64,000 nucleotides of DNA from a virus: the IMG/VR virus record IMGVR_UViG_3300031949_000002; one strand, written 5' to 3'. Shown in pieces: positions 7,638-50,565 of this stretch. Each line of letters begins with the position of its first letter. Within the stretch, counting starts at the first letter, position 1. Made by a program: the position numbers and the translations under genes. The notes under the pieces are model-generated. The model searched no databases and was not told where the DNA came from. It saw only the letters and a program-made list of their open reading frames with translations.

Positions 7638-8822
7638 GTGAAGCTCCGCTACCGCTTCCGCTTCTACCCCACCGAGGAGCAGGAGCGCGTCCTCGCCCGC
7701 GTCTTCGGCGCGTGCCGCTACGTCTACAACTGGGGCCTCCGCCTCCGGTCCGACGCGTACAAGAACGAGAAGCTCTCGTTTACTTACGTGGATTCCAGCG
7801 CCGCGCTGACCGCGCTCAAGAAGACGCCGGAGCATGCCTGGCTCAACGAGGTCTCCAGCGTACCGACTCAGCAAGCGCTCCGACACCTCCAGACCGCCTT
7901 CGTCGCCTTCTTCGAGAAGCGCTCCAAGTACCCTGCTTTCAAGCGCAAGGCGGGCGAGCAGAGCGCGGAGTATACACGCTCCGCCTTCTCCTGGCACGCC
8001 TCGGATCGGTCGCTCGCACTCTCCGGCGTCGGCAGGCTCAAGATCCGTTGGTCCAGGATCTTCCGATCCGAGCCCACCACCGTTACGGTCAAGAGGGATA
8101 CCGCAGGTAGGTACTTCGCGACGCTCTGCCTGGACGAAGAGATCGAGAAGCTTCCGGCCATCCATCGCCCGGTCGGAATCGACCTGGGCATCACGGCTCT
8201 GGCGACCCTCTCGACCGGCGAGAAGATCGAGAATCCGCGGCACATCAAGCGCCTGGAGCGTCGGCTCACCCGCGCGCAGCGCGACCTCTCGCGGAAAAAG
8301 AAAGGCTCTCACCGGAGAGAGTTCCAGCGACTCCGGCTCGCGCGCATCTACGCGAAGCTCTCCGACGCGCGGATGGACTACCTGCACAAGATCACGACGG
8401 ACATCGTCCGGCGCTTCGACGTCGTCTCCATCGAAGACCTGAACGTTCGCGGCATGGCTAAGAACCACAGCCTTGCCCGCGCGATCAGCGACGCAGCGCT
8501 CGGACGGTTTCGCCGGATGATCGAGTATAAGTGCGCCTGGTACGGGCCGGAACTGAGGCTTGTAGACCGGTTCTACCCGTCGAGCAAGCGCTGCTTCGAC
8601 TGCGGCTACGTCCTGGAGACGCTGGACCGAGGATGCCGCGAGTGGATCTGTCCCCAGTGTGGAAAGAAGCACGACCGCGACGAGAACGCTGCAAAGAACA
8701 TTCTGGCGGCCGGACAGGCCGTGACTGCGCGTGGAGGGACGGTAAGACCGATCCGTCGTGGACGGAGCGGCGCATCCCTGCGAAGCGCGAACCAGCCTGA
8801 GAGTACGCATAAAGCCTCTTAG
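7638..8822 (+). CDS. tnpB: TnpB RNA-guided endonuclease (394 aa)
   Basis: KLRYRFRFYPT HTH; VGIDLG, IEDLNV, DRDENAAKNI RuvC motifs; CFDC/CPQC Zn finger. Confidence 0.95.
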   Translation: MKLRYRFRFYPTEEQERVLARVFGACRYVYNWGLRLRSDAYKNEKLSFTYVDSSAALTALKKTPEHAWLNEVSSVPTQQALRHLQTAFVAFFEKRSKYPAFKRKAGEQSAEYTRSAFSWHASDRSLALSGVGRLKIRWSRIFRSEPTTVTVKRDTAGRYFATLCLDEEIEKLPAIHRPVGIDLGITALATLSTGEKIENPRHIKRLERRLTRAQRDLSRKKKGSHRREFQRLRLARIYAKLSDARMDYLHKITTDIVRRFDVVSIEDLNVRGMAKNHSLARAISDAALGRFRRMIEYKCAWYGPELRLVDRFYPSSKRCFDCGYVLETLDRGCREWICPQCGKKHDRDENAAKNILAAGQAVTARGGTVRPIRRGRSGASLRSANQPESTHKAS

Positions 8823-8899
8823 GAATCCTCGCCCTTTAGGGCGGGGAGGATGTCAAAAACCGCGGGCTCTACCTTTGAGCTAACGGCCCGGGAGACAGC

Positions 8900-11800
8900 T
8901 TACGCCTCGTCGTCGCTATCATCCAGGACCTCCTCAGCTTCGGAACTCTGCTTCGGTTCAAGATCGAACACGAAGTCCATCGGAAGATCGGCTGTCCCGT
9001 CCTTGCCCACCTCGGTCTTCTCCGGATACAGATCGTCGTCATCATCCCAACTGTGCGCCTCCGAAGGCTTCTTGTACCCGAGGCGCTTGCACTCCTCGTA
9101 GAGCTTCCGCAGCGACTTCCCGTGCGGGTCCACTCCGCGATCGATCAGGAACATCAGGTGCGGCCGGACTTCGTGCGGCCTGAACCGGTTGTTTCCTTCC
9201 TTGAAGCCGAGCATCTTCTTGTGCTCGGGCCAGAGATCGGGATCACCGTACTCCGAGATGAACTCGCGATACGCCTTTTCCTCAACGGCCTTCCCGATCC
9301 CAGCTTCGAGAGCGCTAACCGCATCCTCGACGCGTTCGCGGAGCGCGTCCCTCTTCTTCTCGGCCGCGGTAAGCCTCGTAATCTCTTCCCGGAACCGCTG
9401 CTCGTTTTCCTCGCTGCGCCAAATCACGCTCTGGCCCTCGCTACGGTAGCGGTAGCCCGGCTCCCAAGGGAACGTTCCTTCGAAAGTACGCGATCCGCCG
9501 CCCGCATAGAACCTGTGCGTGACCTCTCCCTTCTTGCGCTCCCAGTCGATCGATCCGGAGACAAGACCGACCCGATCCCATTCTCCGGTCATGAGGTATC
9601 TCGGAATCGAGTTCCGATCCTCCGCGTACCAGACCGCGAAGTCCACCTTTCCGCGGCTGTCCCTGCCGCGTGTGATCACGATCGGACGCTTCTTCTCGTC
9701 TTTCTTTTTCTGCTGCGCAAGGTGCAGGACGGTGGCCTGGACGATCCGCTCGACTTCAGGATCGGTAAGCTCGAATCCCATGCGCGTGTCGCGCACCCAG
9801 GCATCCCAGCGGGGAGACCTCCAGAGTTCGGCCCACCGCCAGTGTCGGTCATCAACCAGCGTCCATTCCCGAAGCTGAACCGATCCGAGACTCTTCGGGT
9901 CTTTCATCCCCTTGGGGAAGGAGTAGACGAACTCGTGGACCCAGATGTTCTCGTCGGTCCTCGCGGCCCGAAGCGCGACGTAGTGGCTCCCGCGCTTGTG
10001 GCCGATGTAGATCGCGTCCGAGACTCGCGAACGAAGCTCTTCGACGACCGCGGCATGGATCGACGCGCGGTCTCGACGGTCCTTCCGCAGGCCCTCCCGG
10101 GTTCCGAACTCCCGAACGATCATCCGGAGCGCCTTCTTGTCGTTCTCCTTCAGACCGCGCTTCGTCTTGTTCTTGAACTTGTACCAGCGCACGAGGTCGG
10201 GGACGGCCCTCTCGGCACGCTCGATCGAGACTCCGTATTCCGTGCTGATACTCCCAGCTAAGAGCTTGCGGAACGGCTCCTCCTCGCTCAACTCCCGCTC
10301 CTTCGCCCTCTTCACGCAACGGAGAAGCGGAAACATCTCAAGGTAGTTGTGCCGATCCACCCTGGACCCGAGATAGAACACGATGTCGGCCGGGTCCACG
10401 TCGTCGTAGTTGATGAAGAGGCGTGAGTCGCGGTTGACCGAACAGGAGGCCCTCTTCTGGGACTTCCGGACGCCTTCGTACGGGACGTAGATCTCGTCGT
10501 TCCTGACGTAGCGGAATTTTACGCTGCCTCCATCGACCTCGTCCACACTGTAGATCTCGAAGTCCTCAGGCGGGTCTGCCCTTTTCGGCGAAATATGTAC
10601 GTAATTCTTCGCCTCGTAGCGCCTCCAGGCCCCGACGATCCGGTGACCCTTGCGAACCTTCGAGTTCAGGTCCTCGAACCACTCCTCGAATGACTTCTTG
10701 CCGCTCGGGAGGCAAAGCTCCGCATCGTGAATGAACCGCAGCGCCTTCTCGTACGTCTCCGGATTTCCGACGTTGAGCCTGGCGACAGGCAATGGCCGGA
10801 ATACGACGGTACGGTCCAGGATCCCCTGGAGGAATAGGAGGATGCGGAGGTAGTGCCGCTGCTCTTCGTCCGCCTTCTCCACCGCCTCCATGTACTCCCT
10901 GCTGCCCGGTCGGATCGCTTCCCTTCTCTGCTTGTGCGTGTCCCAGTCGTAGCGGATCGCGGTGAAGATGCGGTCATACTCGTCACGTCGAGGGAAGAGG
11001 ACGTCATCAACCTCAAGATCCGTGCCGATCCTGTACAGGTTCTCTCCGTTCCGGAGCAGAAAGTACGTCTTGAGGTTCTTCTTGTTCATCTCCGCGTTTG
11101 CGTACGCACTGTTCGTGTACTCGACCGTTCTGCGCCGCGGCTTGATCGCCACCATGCCCTTGATCTCGGGCAGGACTTGCTCAAGGTTGGAAGGATCGGA
11201 CACCCACTTGTCGAACTCCTCGATCTTCTGGAAGTCGAGCCCTCCACTTTCCGCGTTGATCACGCTCTCCTCGTCCATGAAGAGGACGAGTTGCCGGATC
11301 GAGATCGGCTCTTCCTTCGGAGCCGGTACGCCCTTCTTCAACTGAAGAATCGTCTCGTCTTTGCCCAGGTAGAGGTTGATGGTCCAGACCGCTTCCTCCA
11401 GGCGTTCGACTACCTCCATGATGCCTTTAACGCTCAGTTCGAGCGCCGTGCTCTGCTCTTCGAGGAGGGCGGCGAGTTCTTTCTGCTTCGCCTGGATCGT
11501 CTTCTGGAACTTCTGAAGCGCGTTCCTGGTCTCTGCGACGCGGCGCTTGACCTCGCGCGGCTTCGACGGGACGATCAGTTCCTTGCTGTCCGACATCTCG
11601 ACCGGAGCTTCGTCCGGCCCGAGGAGGCCGTAGGTTTCCCGGACAAGCTGGTCCTGCCGGTCCGGAACCTTCAAAACTTCCTCCATCAGAGCGGCGATCT
11701 GCCCCTGACGCTCCTTCAGGCCGCTCGGGTCGAGACGGAACTTCGACTCGAAGTCGTCGAAGTCGGTCTCGCTGAAGTGATGGTCCTTATATAGGAAGTC

Positions 11801-16719: not shown

Positions 16720-16974
16720 TTACTTCTTGGCTTGAACTACGATTTTGATTCCACCGTTGACGAAGATGAACGGGAGATACCCGCTCCATGTCTGCTTGGG
16801 AAGCAGGACGATCGTCTTCGACACGAAACCGGCCGTCGCGACCAACTCGATCGGCTCGTTGCCCGGATTTTCGATCGTGATGTCCACCTGGGACCGTCTC
16901 TGCGGCGGAGCGCACGCGGCGAGGAAGCAAAGGACTTCAATGGCGACGAATCGAAGGTTCCACAAAGTCTTCAC
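16720..16974 (-). CDS. Putative small lipoprotein/secreted protein
   Basis: Signal-like N-terminus ending LAAC; start codon lies at IscB element junction. Confidence 0.6.
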   Translation of the reverse strand: MKTLWNLRFVAIEVLCFLAACAPPQRRSQVDITIENPGNEPIELVATAGFVSKTIVLLPKQTWSGYLPFIFVNGGIKIVVQAKK

Positions 16975-18272
16975 GCAGCGGGAGCCCCGGGCTTCAGTCC
17001 AGGGAGGAGCCGCGTTCCTCCATTGTATTCGTAAGCGTCGGAACGATGTACTCGCGTCAGATGCTTCGGATGCACGTCGATCCTACCGATCATGAACGAC
17101 GGACGATGGCGGATCGCCACTTTGCCGATGACAATTCCGGCATATTTCCCTTTCGGAATGACTGCGCGGGCGACGTCCCCGCTCTGCCAGCCTTGAAATG
17201 TCCTGGCTCGCTTCGCGTGCGCCTTCGGGAATCCGAACGCATCGGTCAGGCATCTCTTCCTCCTGCCGTGGCCGATCGCCTTGATACGGAGGGGTACCAA
17301 TACGGCAGGAACACGGACCTCTGCCCCGGATTTCCCGACGCATGCCGCGTCGATCCAGTGCGCCTTCGGGAGTCCGAGCCTCGCCCTATTGAACTTCGTG
17401 CGACCTCCTGTACCGCATTCGACACGCAGTCCCGCCTTCTTGAGCCGCTCGAAGAGTGCCCAACGAGTCGCATTCACAGCAGCGGCGTCTTTGAGCGGTC
17501 GCTTAATTTCTGCCTCGACCTCTGGATGCCCGAACTCCGTAGCGGTCCTGTTCCCTTTTGCCTTGTTGCAGGGATCGCAGGCGAGTGTGAGATTCGAAAC
17601 TCTATTCGACCCACCGCGGCTCTTCGGAACGATATGCTCTACTTCCAGCGGCACATCCCGCACGTCGCAATAGGCGCACTTCCTCCCACGCTTCTCCAAG
17701 AGATACTCCCGCACTTCGTATCCCTGAAGCTCGCCTTGCTGATACTCGATGCCTGAAATCTCCGGGTTCTCCATCAACTGCGTGTCGAACCTCACGAGTT
17801 CAAGCGAGATAGACGAGACCGGCGCGAGACGCCGCGCCCGAAGAAGCCAAGTCTCGACGTTCGCGACGCGGCTCTCCAAGCTCGGAGGAAGCCAGCCCGA
17901 CCTCCGCGTCCTGTTCATGAACCTTGGAGCACGATAGCGAAGATGCCTGCTCCTTCTTCCACGACGGAGAGCGCTCCGAGAACCGAGCGCGTCTCGGATC
18001 GCTTCGCCTCGATGCGTGATCTCCGCGCCCCAGATGATCCTCTTGCCGTTCTTGAGATCCGCAACAAGCGCGAGTCCCGTGATCTTCGAACCCGGATCGA
18101 CCTTGAAGGCCACAGGCTGGACCTCCCCACCGGTCCGATCCTTGAGAATGATCGTGAAAGGGTAGCGCCGATAGATCGCCGCCTTGCCCTTGTCGAGCAA
18201 TTCCTTCGCCCTTGCGGGATGGCACGGCATAAGCGGTTTCTTTTTCCGGTCCAGCACGAAGACCCGCTGCAC
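16971..18272 (-). CDS. iscB: IscB RNA-guided endonuclease (PLMP-RuvC-BH-HNH)
   Basis: PLMPCHPARA, KVDPGSK, RRGRRSR, CAYC..EVEHIVP..SNLTLAC..CN, HWIDAAC. Confidence 0.95.
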   Translation of the reverse strand: MQRVFVLDRKKKPLMPCHPARAKELLDKGKAAIYRRYPFTIILKDRTGGEVQPVAFKVDPGSKITGLALVADLKNGKRIIWGAEITHRGEAIRDALGSRSALRRGRRSRHLRYRAPRFMNRTRRSGWLPPSLESRVANVETWLLRARRLAPVSSISLELVRFDTQLMENPEISGIEYQQGELQGYEVREYLLEKRGRKCAYCDVRDVPLEVEHIVPKSRGGSNRVSNLTLACDPCNKAKGNRTATEFGHPEVEAEIKRPLKDAAAVNATRWALFERLKKAGLRVECGTGGRTKFNRARLGLPKAHWIDAACVGKSGAEVRVPAVLVPLRIKAIGHGRRKRCLTDAFGFPKAHAKRARTFQGWQSGDVARAVIPKGKYAGIVIGKVAIRHRPSFMIGRIDVHPKHLTRVHRSDAYEYNGGTRLLPGLKPGAPAA

Positions 18273-18564
18273 TTCTCGTTCTCCGAAGAATGCCCCGTTA
18301 CCGGGGCCTTTCCGCTCTCGCGGATGAAGTTCGCCTCGACAATGTTGGACGGGCTTTTCGCGTCCGGCACACCGATCTACACCCTCGATCTTTTAATGCC
18401 GGACGACAGAGCGGAGGACTGGCAACGCATCCTCCGGTGTCCTGGCCCGACCAACGTAGTTCGGCGTGTACGTACGTCGCCGAACTGAGTCTGGTCAACG
18501 CGGGCTTACGTCACGGAGTCTTCTCCTTTCCGCAAGCCCCGGACTTTAGTCCGGGGTGGTTGAC
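16973..18564 (-). mobile_element. IS200/IS605-family IscB element
   Basis: Starts GTCAACCACCCCGGACTAAAGTCCGGGG; related hairpin CCCTGGACTGAAGCCCGGGG near the other end; boundaries +/-1 nt. Confidence 0.85.
18275..18564 (-). ncRNA. omegaRNA (HEARO-like) scaffold of IscB
   Basis: GTCAAC..CCCC hairpin, GTTGACCAGACTCAG, AACTACGTT, GACACC..GATGC..CCAGTCC..CTCTGTCG blocks upstream of iscB. Confidence 0.85.
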
Positions 18565-18612
18565 ATCTACTGCACCTCTGCTCTAGTAGTATACCGCATC
18601 GATTCGCTCGCC

Positions 18613-19254
18613 ATGGGTGATTGGTTATTCCAATTCGCATTCCGCAACCCATATAATATCGGTATGGGATGGAAATGCTTCGTGATCGAGAAGTCCCTCT
18701 ACATGCGTCGATCGCTTCGTCGCCACACATCGACCCCATGCGACAAAACGGCGGTGAAGCACCATGATACGACGATCGTCGTAGATGAGTATGTCCCAGC
18801 GCTCGGCCTGAGCGAGGGCGCATTCCTGGGAGACGCGGACGACGAGACGCCTGATCCGCGGTGGCCTCGATTCTGCCTCTGCGGATACCGGTTCCACCTG
18901 GAAGATCACTGGCAGGTGATCATGGACACCCTGTACGCAGGATTTCCGGACCGAAAGCTCTATTCCCTGCGTGACAATGACCTCCCGATCGGGGCGATGT
19001 GGGCATCCGACATGGTCGTTCACAAGGGGCCGGACGGAGCCGCCTGGTGCCTCCGACTTCCGGGAGGAATCGACTGGTCGGTCTACAGCCCGAGTTCGAA
19101 CGGCGTGAAGTGGGACGTCCGTGGCGTCCCGCCGAGCATCACGGTCTCTCCGAGCATTCACATGCCTGGCGTGTTCCATGGATTCGTGATTAGCGGGGTT
19201 ATCCAGGAAGATTGCGACGGCCGGAAGTTCGAAGGGATCCCCCGAACCGCGTAG
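18613..19254 (+). CDS. Hypothetical protein, C-terminal DUF6527-like motif
   Basis: PSITVSPSI..FHGFVISGV; start uncertain (18613 or 18664). Confidence 0.6.
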   Translation: MGDWLFQFAFRNPYNIGMGWKCFVIEKSLYMRRSLRRHTSTPCDKTAVKHHDTTIVVDEYVPALGLSEGAFLGDADDETPDPRWPRFCLCGYRFHLEDHWQVIMDTLYAGFPDRKLYSLRDNDLPIGAMWASDMVVHKGPDGAAWCLRLPGGIDWSVYSPSSNGVKWDVRGVPPSITVSPSIHMPGVFHGFVISGVIQEDCDGRKFEGIPRTA

Positions 19255-19327
19255 TGGACCCGGCAGGGCTCGAACCTGCAATTTCCTCGATGTCACCGAG
19301 GCGTCCTGACCATTGGACGACGGGTCC
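19255..19327 (-). tRNA. trnV: tRNA-Val(GAC)
   Basis: CCTCG-GTGACAT-CGAGG. Confidence 0.85.
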
Positions 19328-19329
19328 GA

Positions 19330-19588
19330 ACGGGACAGACCGTATCCCAGGTGCGCTAACCCCCAAGCCGCTGCCCCTGGAGTGCCTTGTCGATAGCGAC
19401 GGCATCGGGGGGCGGGGGATCGTCGCCTCGCTATGTACCGGCCCGGATCGACCCCCCCCCGCTGTAGACCGCGGGAGGGACTGTACCGGCCAACTCGCGG
19501 GACTCACCCCATTCAGCACATCGGCCTGCCTACAGACCTCAGTATCCTATCGGATGGCTCCGCGCCCCCCGGCGCCGTCGCACTAAAG
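19330..19588 (-). ncRNA. Unassigned ~260-nt structured RNA between tRNA-Pro and tRNA-Val
   Basis: Long-range helices GCGACGGC/GCCGTCGC, GGGGGGCG/CGCCCCCC, CTGTAGGC/GTCTACAG, GGGGGGTCG/CGATCCCCC; G-U pairs favour minus strand. Confidence 0.6.
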
Positions 19589-19590
19589 TA

Positions 19591-19663
19591 TCGGGCTCCG
19601 CGGACTTGCACCGCGCCGTACCCGTTCCCGAAACGGGTGGGACGCTACCTTCCCTTGAGCCCG
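19591..19663 (-). tRNA. trnP: tRNA-Pro(CGG)
   Basis: CGGGCTC/GAGCCCG acceptor; CCCGT-TTCGGGA-ACGGG. Confidence 0.8.
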
Positions 19664-19664
19664 C

Positions 19665-19673
19665 TGGTATAAT
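19665..19673 (+). promoter_or_regulatory. Extended -10 promoter (leaderless)
   Basis: TG-G-TATAAT, ATG 7 nt downstream. Confidence 0.65.
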
Positions 19674-19680
19674 CGCCTCG

Positions 19681-20361
19681 ATGGATGCCGACTGGATCCT
19701 CCACAGGAGCGGCCTGCCCTGGCTGAAGCTCGACATCGTCGTTCCGTATCGCGAGATCTTCGAGGAATCGATCCGAGTTCGCGACCGCTTCGTCACGCAC
19801 CGCTACCGCGGGAAGAAGGCGAACTGGAGAGCGGTCTGCCTCCACGGGATCTCGGCCGAGAAGATCGACAGCCCGAGCGTGTACGGCTTTGCGTCGGAAC
19901 GCGACGCTCCGTATCGATGGACCGACGTCGGGGAGTCGTGTCCGGCGACGAAGCGCTTTGTGGAAAGCCTCGGGTACGCATTCCTCTTCCGTGTCAGGTG
20001 GATGATCCTGGAGCCGGGCGCAGTCGTACCTCCGCACCGCGACTATCCGAAACCGTCCCTCAGCTACCTGAATGCGGCGATTCGCTACCCAAAAGGCTGC
20101 CGCTTCATCGTCCGCGGAGAGGACGTCCCGTTCGAGGACGGAATGGCGATCCTACTCGATGGATCTAACGAGCACTCGGTCCGGAACGACAGCGCGGAGG
20201 ACCGCCTTCATCTCGTGATCCACGGAGATCTCGCAAGTCCGCAGTGGAAGGATCTCGTCGAGAGGAGCTACGCGTTATCGGGGCGACTGGATTTGAACCA
20301 GCGATCTTCTGTCCCCCAGACAGACGGGAATTCCAGGCTTCCCCACGCCCCGTCGATGTGA
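19681..20361 (+). CDS. Asp/Asn beta-hydroxylase-like Fe(II)/2OG dioxygenase
   Basis: LEPGAVVPPHRD; DGSNEHSVRN...RLHLVIHG. Confidence 0.8.
   Translation: MDADWILHRSGLPWLKLDIVVPYREIFEESIRVRDRFVTHRYRGKKANWRAVCLHGISAEKIDSPSVYGFASERDAPYRWTDVGESCPATKRFVESLGYAFLFRVRWMILEPGAVVPPHRDYPKPSLSYLNAAIRYPKGCRFIVRGEDVPFEDGMAILLDGSNEHSVRNDSAEDRLHLVIHGDLASPQWKDLVERSYALSGRLDLNQRSSVPQTDGNSRLPHAPSM
20278..20352 (-). tRNA. trnP: tRNA-Pro(GGG)
   Basis: TCTGT-CTGGGGG-ACAGA; antisense to dioxygenase 3' end. Confidence 0.85.
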
Positions 20362-20428
20362 GCGCCCGGTTACGCTCCGGGTCCCCCTGGGCCACGGCCA
20401 GGTGCGCTACTATTACGCTACGCCCACC
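20357..20428 (-). tRNA. trnH: tRNA-His(GTG)
   Basis: CCTGG-CCGTGGC-CCAGG; atypical T loop AGCGTAA. Confidence 0.7.
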
Positions 20429-20440
20429 ACGAGAAGTAAG

Positions 20441-20511
20441 TCCACCAGGGAAGAGTCGAACTTCCGTTGACCGGTTATCGGCCGGTTCGTCTACCGTTGA
20501 CGTACTGGTGG
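20441..20511 (-). tRNA. trnI: tRNA-Ile(GAT)
   Basis: ACCGG-CCGATAA-CCGGT. Confidence 0.85.
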
Positions 20512-20515
20512 AGGA

Positions 20516-20586
20516 ACGGGGTGACCGGAATTGCACCGGCATCTGCTCCATGGCACGGAGCGATCCTGCTCTTGGACGACACCCCG
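20516..20586 (-). tRNA. trnG: tRNA-Gly(GCC)
   Basis: GCTCC-GTGCCAT-GGAGC; U73. Confidence 0.85.
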
Positions 20587-20591
20587 AATGG

Positions 20592-20662
20592 CCGCCCCGC
20601 TGGGAATCGAACCCAGGCCCTCCGCTTCAAAGGCGGCTGCACTACCATTATGCGACAGGGCA
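20592..20662 (-). tRNA. trnQ: tRNA-Gln(TTG)
   Basis: Loop CTTTGAA. Confidence 0.85.
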
Positions 20663-20668
20663 ACGAAA

Positions 20669-20758
20669 TGGGCGCGGCAGGATTCGAACCTGCATCCCTC
20701 TCGGTTGACCGGGTTACGGCCGGTTGAGCACTTTGTCCCAGACCTGCTCAGCGCGCCC
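20669..20758 (-). tRNA. trnY: tRNA-Tyr(GTA), enlarged D loop
   Basis: ACCGG-CCGTAAC-CCGGT, long variable arm. Confidence 0.8.
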
Positions 20759-20914: not shown

Positions 20915-20917
20915 TTA

Positions 20918-21003
20918 TCCCTCTGCGTTCTACCCTCCGTCGTCGCGGAGTCAGCAGATCATCCCACCCGTCGATGGAAGCCCAGTGGTAGCGCACGAGG
21001 GGA
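20918..21003 (-). ncRNA. Candidate ~86-nt small RNA
   Basis: Ends pair (TCCCCTCGTGCGCTACC / GGTAGAACGCAGAGGGA); internal CTCCG/CGGAG hairpin. Confidence 0.4.
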
Positions 21004-21006
21004 GAT

Positions 21007-21798: not shown

Positions 21799-21836
21799 CA
21801 AAAAAACCCGCGGCCGGTCTCCCCGGGCGCGGGTTC
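21799..21836 (-). terminator. Intrinsic terminator upstream of tRNA cluster
   Basis: AACCCGCG-CCCGG..CCGG-CCGCGGGTT followed by T run. Confidence 0.7.
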
Positions 21837-22035
21837 ATCAAGTTTCGTTCTCTACTTCATCTTGTCACCCCGCACCCGGGCCTCGCGTGCCCGACCGAGT
21901 TATCCTCGTACAGGCGCGTACCGAGGATCACGGCGGACAAGGGCGCAAACGAGGCGGACCATGTCCGCTGGCCGGTACGTTCCGGTCGCTTGCTTCCTTG
22001 CCTCTGGCGGGTTACCTGCATCATCGTCACCGCTG

Positions 22036-49968: not shown

Positions 49969-50218
49969 AGGCCGAGGGAAAAGGTCTACGGATCCGGCTC
50001 GAAATCCTCATGGGGAAGGTCCGGCACTCCGGGTTCAGAAAGCCGCGTCGTCGGCTCTCCGCTCCTGCGCTGCGATCGTAGAGTTCCTGCGTGTTCTCGT
50101 GGGCGGCGGGGATGTTCGTCCTCTTCGACGTAGGTCGGAACGTCGTCTCGCATCTCTGTCCAGCACTCGACATGGGAGCGTTCCCACTCCATGTTCGGCG
50201 CTGCCTTCAATAAAGAGG

Positions 50219-50565
50219 TGGATCCGGGGAGAATCGAACTCCCGTCCAGACGACCGTCATTACGGCGCTTCTACGTGCGTAGTCGGTGTTTTGATCTCGG
50301 GCCGCCGCCGGGCGCCAACACCCTGCGAAGGTCCGTACTCCGGCTAGGTTCTCGGCAGAGGTCTCCCGGATTCTTTCCCCTGCCCAGCAGATGCATTTAC
50401 GTCTTGCCGATCTATCTGCGTCGGCCGGTTCGACGGGCACGGCTAAGCCGCAGCCAGGAGCTTATGCTCAGCAGTTGTCTTTTCATCGCCTTTTAACGTG
50501 TCCAGGCGATGAACCACGGCACGCCACAACCGCACTTCGGTCGCTGTCGAAACCATTTCGGACCC
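50219..50565 (-). ncRNA. ssrA: tmRNA, tag (A)AEHKLLAAA at 50443-50472
   Basis: 5' GGGTCCG..GGTTTCGAC, 3' T arm GTTCGATTCTCCC..CGGATCCA, G3:U70, tag ORF ending AAA-stop. Confidence 0.9.

Follow-up and report, generated by a model that had tools for sequence, protein, structure and literature searches.

A helix-closed non-coding insert fills the gap between two tRNA genes

The window, by which we mean the whole 64-kb stretch of viral DNA that was analysed, carries in its tRNA operon a 263-nt insert that the evidence supports as non-coding, closed by a helix, situated beside tRNAs and outside the known RNA families tested. The insert is real, single and unconserved, and phage tRNA arrays are already known to contain inserts of its kind. 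It occupies positions 19328-19590 on the minus strand (67% GC) and constitutes the entire gap between two same-strand tRNA genes, with an exact fit: tRNA-Pro(CGG) upstream (19591-19663, minus, without an encoded CCA) and tRNA-Val(GAC) downstream (19254-19327, minus). These boundaries bear out a sequence-only reading of the locus, which had placed an element of about 260 nt beside the tRNAs. The gene-free spacers nearby in this part of the operon mostly measure 0-13 nt, and the longer spacers there are two gene-bearing ones of 197 and 614 nt, one of 92 nt and the insert itself.

The window, whose minus strand carries over 40 tRNA genes from 6.5 to 21.7 kb, is part of a 341-kb soil contig that looks like a giant phage; the same DNA is found in ENA record ERZ27256953. 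Among named genomes, the closest HNH relatives are encoded in Planctomycetota MAGs, a likeness that points to a host probably within that phylum.

The insert is non-coding in all six frames, which score -0.47 to -0.75 bits per codon, compared with a minimum of 0.0 in 49 pieces of real genes of equal length. GC3 codon periodicity was looked for in the insert and not found, and the three ORFs that overlap it run through tRNA genes and gave no match in a PHROG search. The sequence-only reading was thus right that no credible ORF is present. Neither a sigma-70 promoter nor a terminator was called within or beside the insert.

The closing helix is the only feature beyond chance

The core of the insert, a candidate small RNA of 186 nt (19396-19581, minus), is closed by an 18-bp helix of 9+9 bp around a single mismatch. 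Its 5' arm (19563-19581, minus) consists of P1 (19573-19581) and P2 (19563-19571) with one C·A mismatch between them, and its 3' arm (19396-19414, minus), which is also found as an inverted repeat, provides the partner strands of P2 (19406-19414) and P1 (19396-19404). The score of this helix was reached by none of 300 shuffles and by none of 243 other 263-nt windows of the contig, and predicted pair probabilities are 0.83-1.0 for 17 of its 18 pairs and 0.51 for the innermost one. P1+P2 is the sole feature of the insert that exceeds chance. Because this helix contains one G-U pair whichever strand is read, and because the folding of 19393-19583 is equal on both strands (z -2.8 on one, -2.7 on the other), the strand assignment of the insert rests mainly on the direction of the operon.

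Inside the core, the predicted helices P3 (8 bp), P4 (7 bp) and P5 (9 bp) have an ambiguous status. A possible inner domain (19462-19535, minus) would consist of P3 (19528-19535/19462-19469) around P4 (19520-19526/19488-19494), and a possible P5 (19414-19457, minus) would pair 19449-19457 with 19414-19422 and run on continuously from the 3' arm of P2; both are predicted with a probability of about 0.35. P5 competes with a 10-bp C-rich/G-rich hairpin (19453-19480, minus). The 8-nt loop of this hairpin coincides with the 3' strand of P3, so that a pseudoknot with P3 could form. The arrangement of P3, P4 and P5 with P1/P2 is predicted at -79.5 kcal/mol, versus -81.1 kcal/mol for the arrangement with the hairpin.

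The nested helices of 8-9 bp described from the sequence are present (P1-P5, 7-9 bp), but their number is at chance, with 14 helices of at least 8 bp against a shuffle mean of 11.9 (reached in 56 of 200 shuffles), and the inner ones compete. Likewise, G-U pairs compatible with the minus strand only were confirmed for P3, P4, P5 and the competing hairpin but not for P1+P2. The term 'multi-domain' is not borne out for an A-poor RNA (15% A) in which the inner helices compete at chance level and the predicted ensemble is diffuse (0.29 bp distance per nt, versus 0.06 in the HEARO RNA and 0.17 in the tmRNA, both encoded in the window). The stability of the whole insert lies within the shuffled range (z -1.15 on the minus and -1.55 on the plus strand), and the interior of the core folds like shuffled sequence (z -0.23).

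The repeat noted earlier, GGCCGGTACA, does occur in two copies (19482-19491 and 19434-19443, both minus), but a 10-nt repeat is present in 30 of 500 shuffles as well, which makes it borderline (p about 0.06) and not clearly above chance. We also considered a 15-nt complement of the first copy to the operon leader (21969-21983) and dismissed it, since it is among 36 comparable pairs within 4 kb. The 3' segment beyond the closing helix (19328-19395, minus, 68 nt) forms an irregular hairpin of chance stability (z +0.3) and faintly resembles the 5' half of tRNA-Pro (p 0.08-0.34). On the plus strand, 23 nt resemble the T arm of a relative's tRNA-Val (score 36, shuffle maximum 33); this candidate was rejected, as it has no surrounding acceptor or D arm. 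The likeness is absent with the phage's own tRNAs and is probably due to chance in a G run.

No homologue is found, and related arrays vary at the same slot

Searches by BLAST, nhmmer or covariance model gave no homologue among 50,697 INPHARED phage and 72,556 PLSDB plasmid records, 401 genomes of the phylum Planctomycetota, 56 genomes of the closest class (BLAST plus covariance model) or about 30 array loci or related viral records. The covariance models used, R1 and R2, were each built from single sequences and are weak detectors, and the sets searched are incomplete. Scanning for patterns made from the repeat or the 5' arm gave chance matches or nothing, and a 46-nt match in one of the 401 genomes was discarded because it lies inside a coding gene. 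The 64-kb window contains no second copy of the insert, and contigs from two other soil sequencing runs do not extend over it and gave no variants. Some neighbouring genes led to loci without tRNA arrays: the Asp/Asn hydroxylase, a 1002-aa protein and, in IMG/VR, an 84-aa membrane protein and an ATP-grasp-like protein. The homologue collection proposed with the sequence-only reading yielded no covariation count, and its suggestion of a new ncRNA class was not borne out, as no second member was found; the insert may represent a new ornate RNA class, but nothing supports this.

Neighbouring proteins led to eight arrays that share the tRNA order around tRNA-Val(GAC) (L297, L298, L307, L311, L312, L316, L432 and L440). 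In six of them the slot is empty, with a spacing of 0-7 nt between tRNA-Pro and tRNA-Val(GAC), and in two, L307 and L432, it holds a short folded RNA. The slot RNA of L307 (10464-10544, plus) is tRNA-shaped, 81 nt long and ends in CCA, and its anticodon arm is lengthened to 12 bp with a 4-nt bulge. That of L432 (2128-2222, plus; JGI 3300031965, Ga0326597_10033384) comprises 95 nt, is closed by a 13-bp stem and contains a three-way junction (z -4.1); CGCUA/UAGCG could form a pseudoknot in it. It is identical to L431:211-305 and has no match in Rfam, INPHARED or the 401 phylum genomes.

L440 belongs to a relative of the L432 phage (at least 90% identity in the adjacent protein), and the slot RNA is absent from it. 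Since the slot is empty in six arrays and L440 lacks the RNA of its close relative L432, the slot gains and loses folded RNAs quickly. The insert is dispensable, because six of the eight syntenic arrays, among them that of the near-identical relative of the L432 phage, have nothing in this slot.

The L432 locus resembles that of the window in the T arm of tRNA-Pro, the anticodon arm of tRNA-Val and a nearby opposite-strand gene. The 95-nt RNA and the insert occupy the same slot, have GACGGC/GCCGUC in common in their closing stems and both have a 3' strand that is continuous with the last inner helix, whereas the 95-nt RNA is one third as long and clearly stable (z -4.1). Eight of the first ten stem bases agree (about 0.008, a post-hoc count), and the L432 RNA was the best match to a covariance model of the insert in a search of 9.6 kb, with E 0.07 for the reverse and 0.37 for the forward strand. 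The reciprocal model built from the L432 RNA did not find the insert; whole-length alignment of the two was not significant (p 0.27-0.92), and their interiors gave no significant alignment. Common descent of the two stems is possible, with a marginal link at the sequence level. In one of 18 tests, a gapped alignment of the insert to the tRNA-like RNA of L307 reached p 0.004; two other scorings failed to reproduce it, and it was not retained.

The insert lies outside the families tested

As had been asserted from the sequence, the insert matches none of the RNase P, SRP, 6S or intron signatures. The P4 pseudoknot and the motifs of conserved regions I and V of RNase P RNA, helix 8 with its GNRA loop and the CAGG/AGCA internal loop of SRP RNA, and the S element, G-binding P7 and domains V and VI of group I/II introns were all absent, and none of these families gave an Rfam score. 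Neither did 6S RNA (RF00013), although its model detects 6S in 27 of the 56 genomes from the likely host class. The Infernal/Rfam check proposed earlier gave no family at gathering score and, at E<=10, just four short chance matches (E 0.5-8.7). RAGATH-33 (RF03102) was unlisted for the insert at E<=10, and none was found in five related records. A likeness to group II intron ends seen by eye (GUGCG start, domain V words) had no pairing or pattern support; the same was true of a likeness to Cas12m CRISPR repeats and the end of the IscB element. The T-box motif is absent from the insert.

A tRNA origin was examined by several routes. The best likeness of the insert to tRNAs of the array scored 24, compared with 23-33 in shuffles, and there was no profile match and no cloverleaf; ARAGORN called no split tRNA on the minus strand.

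Nor does the insert belong with the ribozymes tested. A strict HDV-like/theta descriptor (nested double pseudoknot, U..G loop L3, catalytic C in J4/2) was negative, and the match to a relaxed HDV-like descriptor was dropped since 134 of 200 shuffles match it too. Core motifs and Rfam matches of twister, twister-sister, pistol and hammerhead were absent. Theta ribozymes, which are minimal HDV-like ribozymes, share with the insert a position directly 3' of a phage tRNA and pseudoknot potential (PMC10879173), but the insert does not have the strict HDV-like topology and is longer than a minimal ribozyme.

Stable RNA species 1 and 2 (rnaC, rnaD) of the T4 tRNA cluster, which are among the closest known systems, presumably resemble the insert: these, too, are small untranslated RNAs between tRNA genes, with expected release by tRNA processing, and are dispensable. 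The insert differs from them in being longer and GC-rich, in having no sequence match in INPHARED phages and in being known from DNA alone.

ROOL RNAs are over 500 nt long. The sequence-only reading had compared the insert with GOLLD and ROOL, a comparison that fails by size, Rfam score and conservation, the slot being empty in six of eight related arrays. Like the insert, GOLLD (RF02032) and ROOL are non-coding RNAs of phage tRNA arrays with an HNH marker gene (PMC12286853; PMC9569102), and many GOLLD RNAs exceed 800 nt (PMC12286853). The insert, in contrast, has 263 nt, no Rfam score for either family and no conserved covarying fold, and it is missing from most sister arrays.

The Y RNAs YrlA and YrlB resemble the insert in the long helix that joins the two ends, and arrays of related phages carry Ro60 and Y-like units. 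The Y-RNA motif GNCGAAN(0-1)G, found near the 5' end of these RNAs (PMC4201824), does not occur in the insert, which has CCGGGGG at the matching place. A tRNA-like module with T and D stem-loops, any T-loop motif, the Y-like repeat signature of the clade and a YrlA/YrlB Rfam score were likewise absent from it. No Ro60 gene was recognised among the longer ORFs scanned within 4 kb. In the slot RNA of L432, UGCGAAAG atop the 5' strand resembles the Y-RNA motif and is one base off GNCGAAN(0-1)G (PMC4201824). The raiA model (RF03072) gave no score for the insert, and the insert is outside every family tested.

An accessory small RNA is the preferred interpretation

Our preferred interpretation, to which we assign slightly less than an even chance, is that the insert is an accessory untranslated small RNA in a hypervariable slot, released by tRNA processing, protected by its helix and probably serving as a protein ligand or decoy. 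The insert would be co-transcribed with the tRNAs on the minus strand and, by standard bacterial tRNA maturation, freed through removal of the tRNA-Pro 3' trailer and an RNase P cut at the 5' end of tRNA-Val. Exonuclease trimming might then halt at the 3' hairpin, leaving about 260 nt, or at the 18-bp helix, leaving about 190 nt. The released RNA would be non-catalytic and could act as a stable ligand or decoy for an RNA-binding protein or nuclease of host or phage. This last step, the least supported one, is argued by analogy, because sister arrays carry Y-like and raiA RNAs and because conflict genes are typically gained and lost fast. The exact inter-tRNA fit, the non-coding nature of the sequence and the above-chance closing helix support the small-RNA interpretation, as do the related arrays, which use the slot for short folded RNAs and in this clade carry a divergent raiA RNA as well as Y-like repeats next to a Ro60 gene. 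The lack of any homologue found, the mostly empty slot, the chance-level stability of the interior and the non-significant alignment to the L432 RNA speak against it.

That the closing helix alone is significant in an A-poor insert with a diffuse ensemble, and that the slot is empty in most relatives, would also suit a relic or processing aid, in which the helix brackets the insert for looping out or an RNase III cut as the tRNAs mature, with the interior and the 3' segment as decayed remains of tRNAs or a gene that are degraded. The faint likeness of the 3' 68 nt to the 5' half of tRNA-Pro, duplicates of which are common here in relatives, fits this explanation as well. We consider it rather unlikely: the tRNA likeness is not significant (24 versus 23-33 in shuffles, p 0.08-0.34, no profile match), codon bias is kept in no frame, and six of eight relatives mature the same tRNAs without such a stem. 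Less likely still is a bolder form of the small-RNA interpretation. It would make the 186-nt core the founding member of an undescribed RNA family in giant Planctomycetota phages, pseudoknotted and closed by a helix. The 95-nt L432 RNA would be the minimal form of this family, and the core would be made abundantly from the tRNA operon and have a ligand or catalytic activity of its own.

It is improbable that the insert is an expanded and diverged Y-RNA-like molecule whose terminal helix binds a phage Ro60 and which descends from a short stem-closed RNA of the L432 type. The relative G001 does encode Ro60 inside its array, and the insert's 5' arm aligns by position with the UGCGAAAG-bearing strand of the L432 RNA, but the insert has neither the motif nor the T/D arms, clade signature or YrlA/YrlB score, and no Ro60 gene was recognised among the ORFs scanned within 4 kb. 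An undescribed catalytic RNA, for instance a self-cleaving aid to tRNA 3'-trailer removal built on the P3/hairpin pseudoknot, appears more improbable again. P3 can pair with the hairpin loop, and a role in processing phage tRNA trailers has been postulated for theta ribozymes (PMC10879173), but no ribozyme of Rfam scored, the strict HDV-like search was negative while its relaxed version also succeeded in 134 of 200 shuffles, the twister, pistol, twister-sister and hammerhead motifs are absent, and the A content is low. Least probable in our view is a small non-autonomous mobile DNA element inserted in either strand, with the helix arms as 19-bp terminal inverted repeats. Such an element would account for arms that fold equally on both strands and for presence and absence across relatives, in an array that also contains IscB with HEARO RNA and TnpB; however, it exists as a single copy in the 64-kb window, its arms have two mismatches at the DNA level, 68 extra nt lie outside them, and no target-site duplication was seen by eye.

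Unexplained RNAs such as GOLLD, ROOL, Y RNAs and theta ribozymes are known to come from phage tRNA arrays. In this clade of giant soil phages, small folded RNAs appear to be exchanged at one slot before tRNA-Val(GAC), which suggests that they come and go in phage-host conflict much as accessory genes do. If expressed and folded, the insert adds a candidate class; as a lone sequence, it is a lead rather than a discovery, and experiments would better begin with the shorter L432 RNA.

Other small RNAs and elements of the tRNA arrays

Related arrays contain further RNAs. L297 carries a divergent raiA motif RNA in its phage tRNA array (16807-17150, plus; 49 bits, E 8e-11, cut-off 101) with large insertions. 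Repeat units were observed at L307:14470-15210 and 8620-9490, L432:40-720 and L297:1960-2560. Their conserved arms read GGGGCUG or GGCGUUG, followed by GUUACUUC and AUUGCCCC, and they enclose permuted tRNA pieces (T arm, loop-closed acceptor and D arm), in some cases together with an anticodon-like loop. In G001, Y-like units lie inside the array directly upstream of the Ro60/TROVE gene. We regard the repeat units of L307, L432, L297 and G001 as Y-RNA-like. Another conserved RNA, with a variable central hairpin, lies between tRNA-Ala(CGC) and the next gene (L297:2650-2784 and L432:792-900, plus); an Rfam scan of L297 gave no match for it. L432 additionally holds a 143-nt stem-closed RNA (1300-1442, plus; z -2.0) with a T-arm near its 5' end, an order like that of YrlA.

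In the window, a 92-nt stem-closed non-coding spacer between tRNA-Phe and tRNA-Ala(CGC) (20915-21006, minus; z -1.7) is a second candidate small RNA of the operon. The operon leader contains a GC-rich hairpin followed by a T run (21800-21840, minus) after a 57-codon ORF, a possible attenuator, and a weak TTGACT-17-TAGGTT was spotted by eye at about 22064-22036. Antisense to the tRNA operon is an Asp/Asn hydroxylase-like gene, with an extended -10 element, TGgTATAAT (19666-19681, plus), 7 bases before its ATG, a position that suggests a leaderless mRNA. An IscB gene, intact and accompanied by HEARO (omega) RNA and terminal hairpins, is inserted in the operon (16971-18565, minus); TnpB is another mobile element of the array. 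A second tmRNA call by ARAGORN (20322-20758, minus) overlaps five tRNA genes and was rejected as an artefact; the genuine tmRNA of the window lies at 50217-50565.
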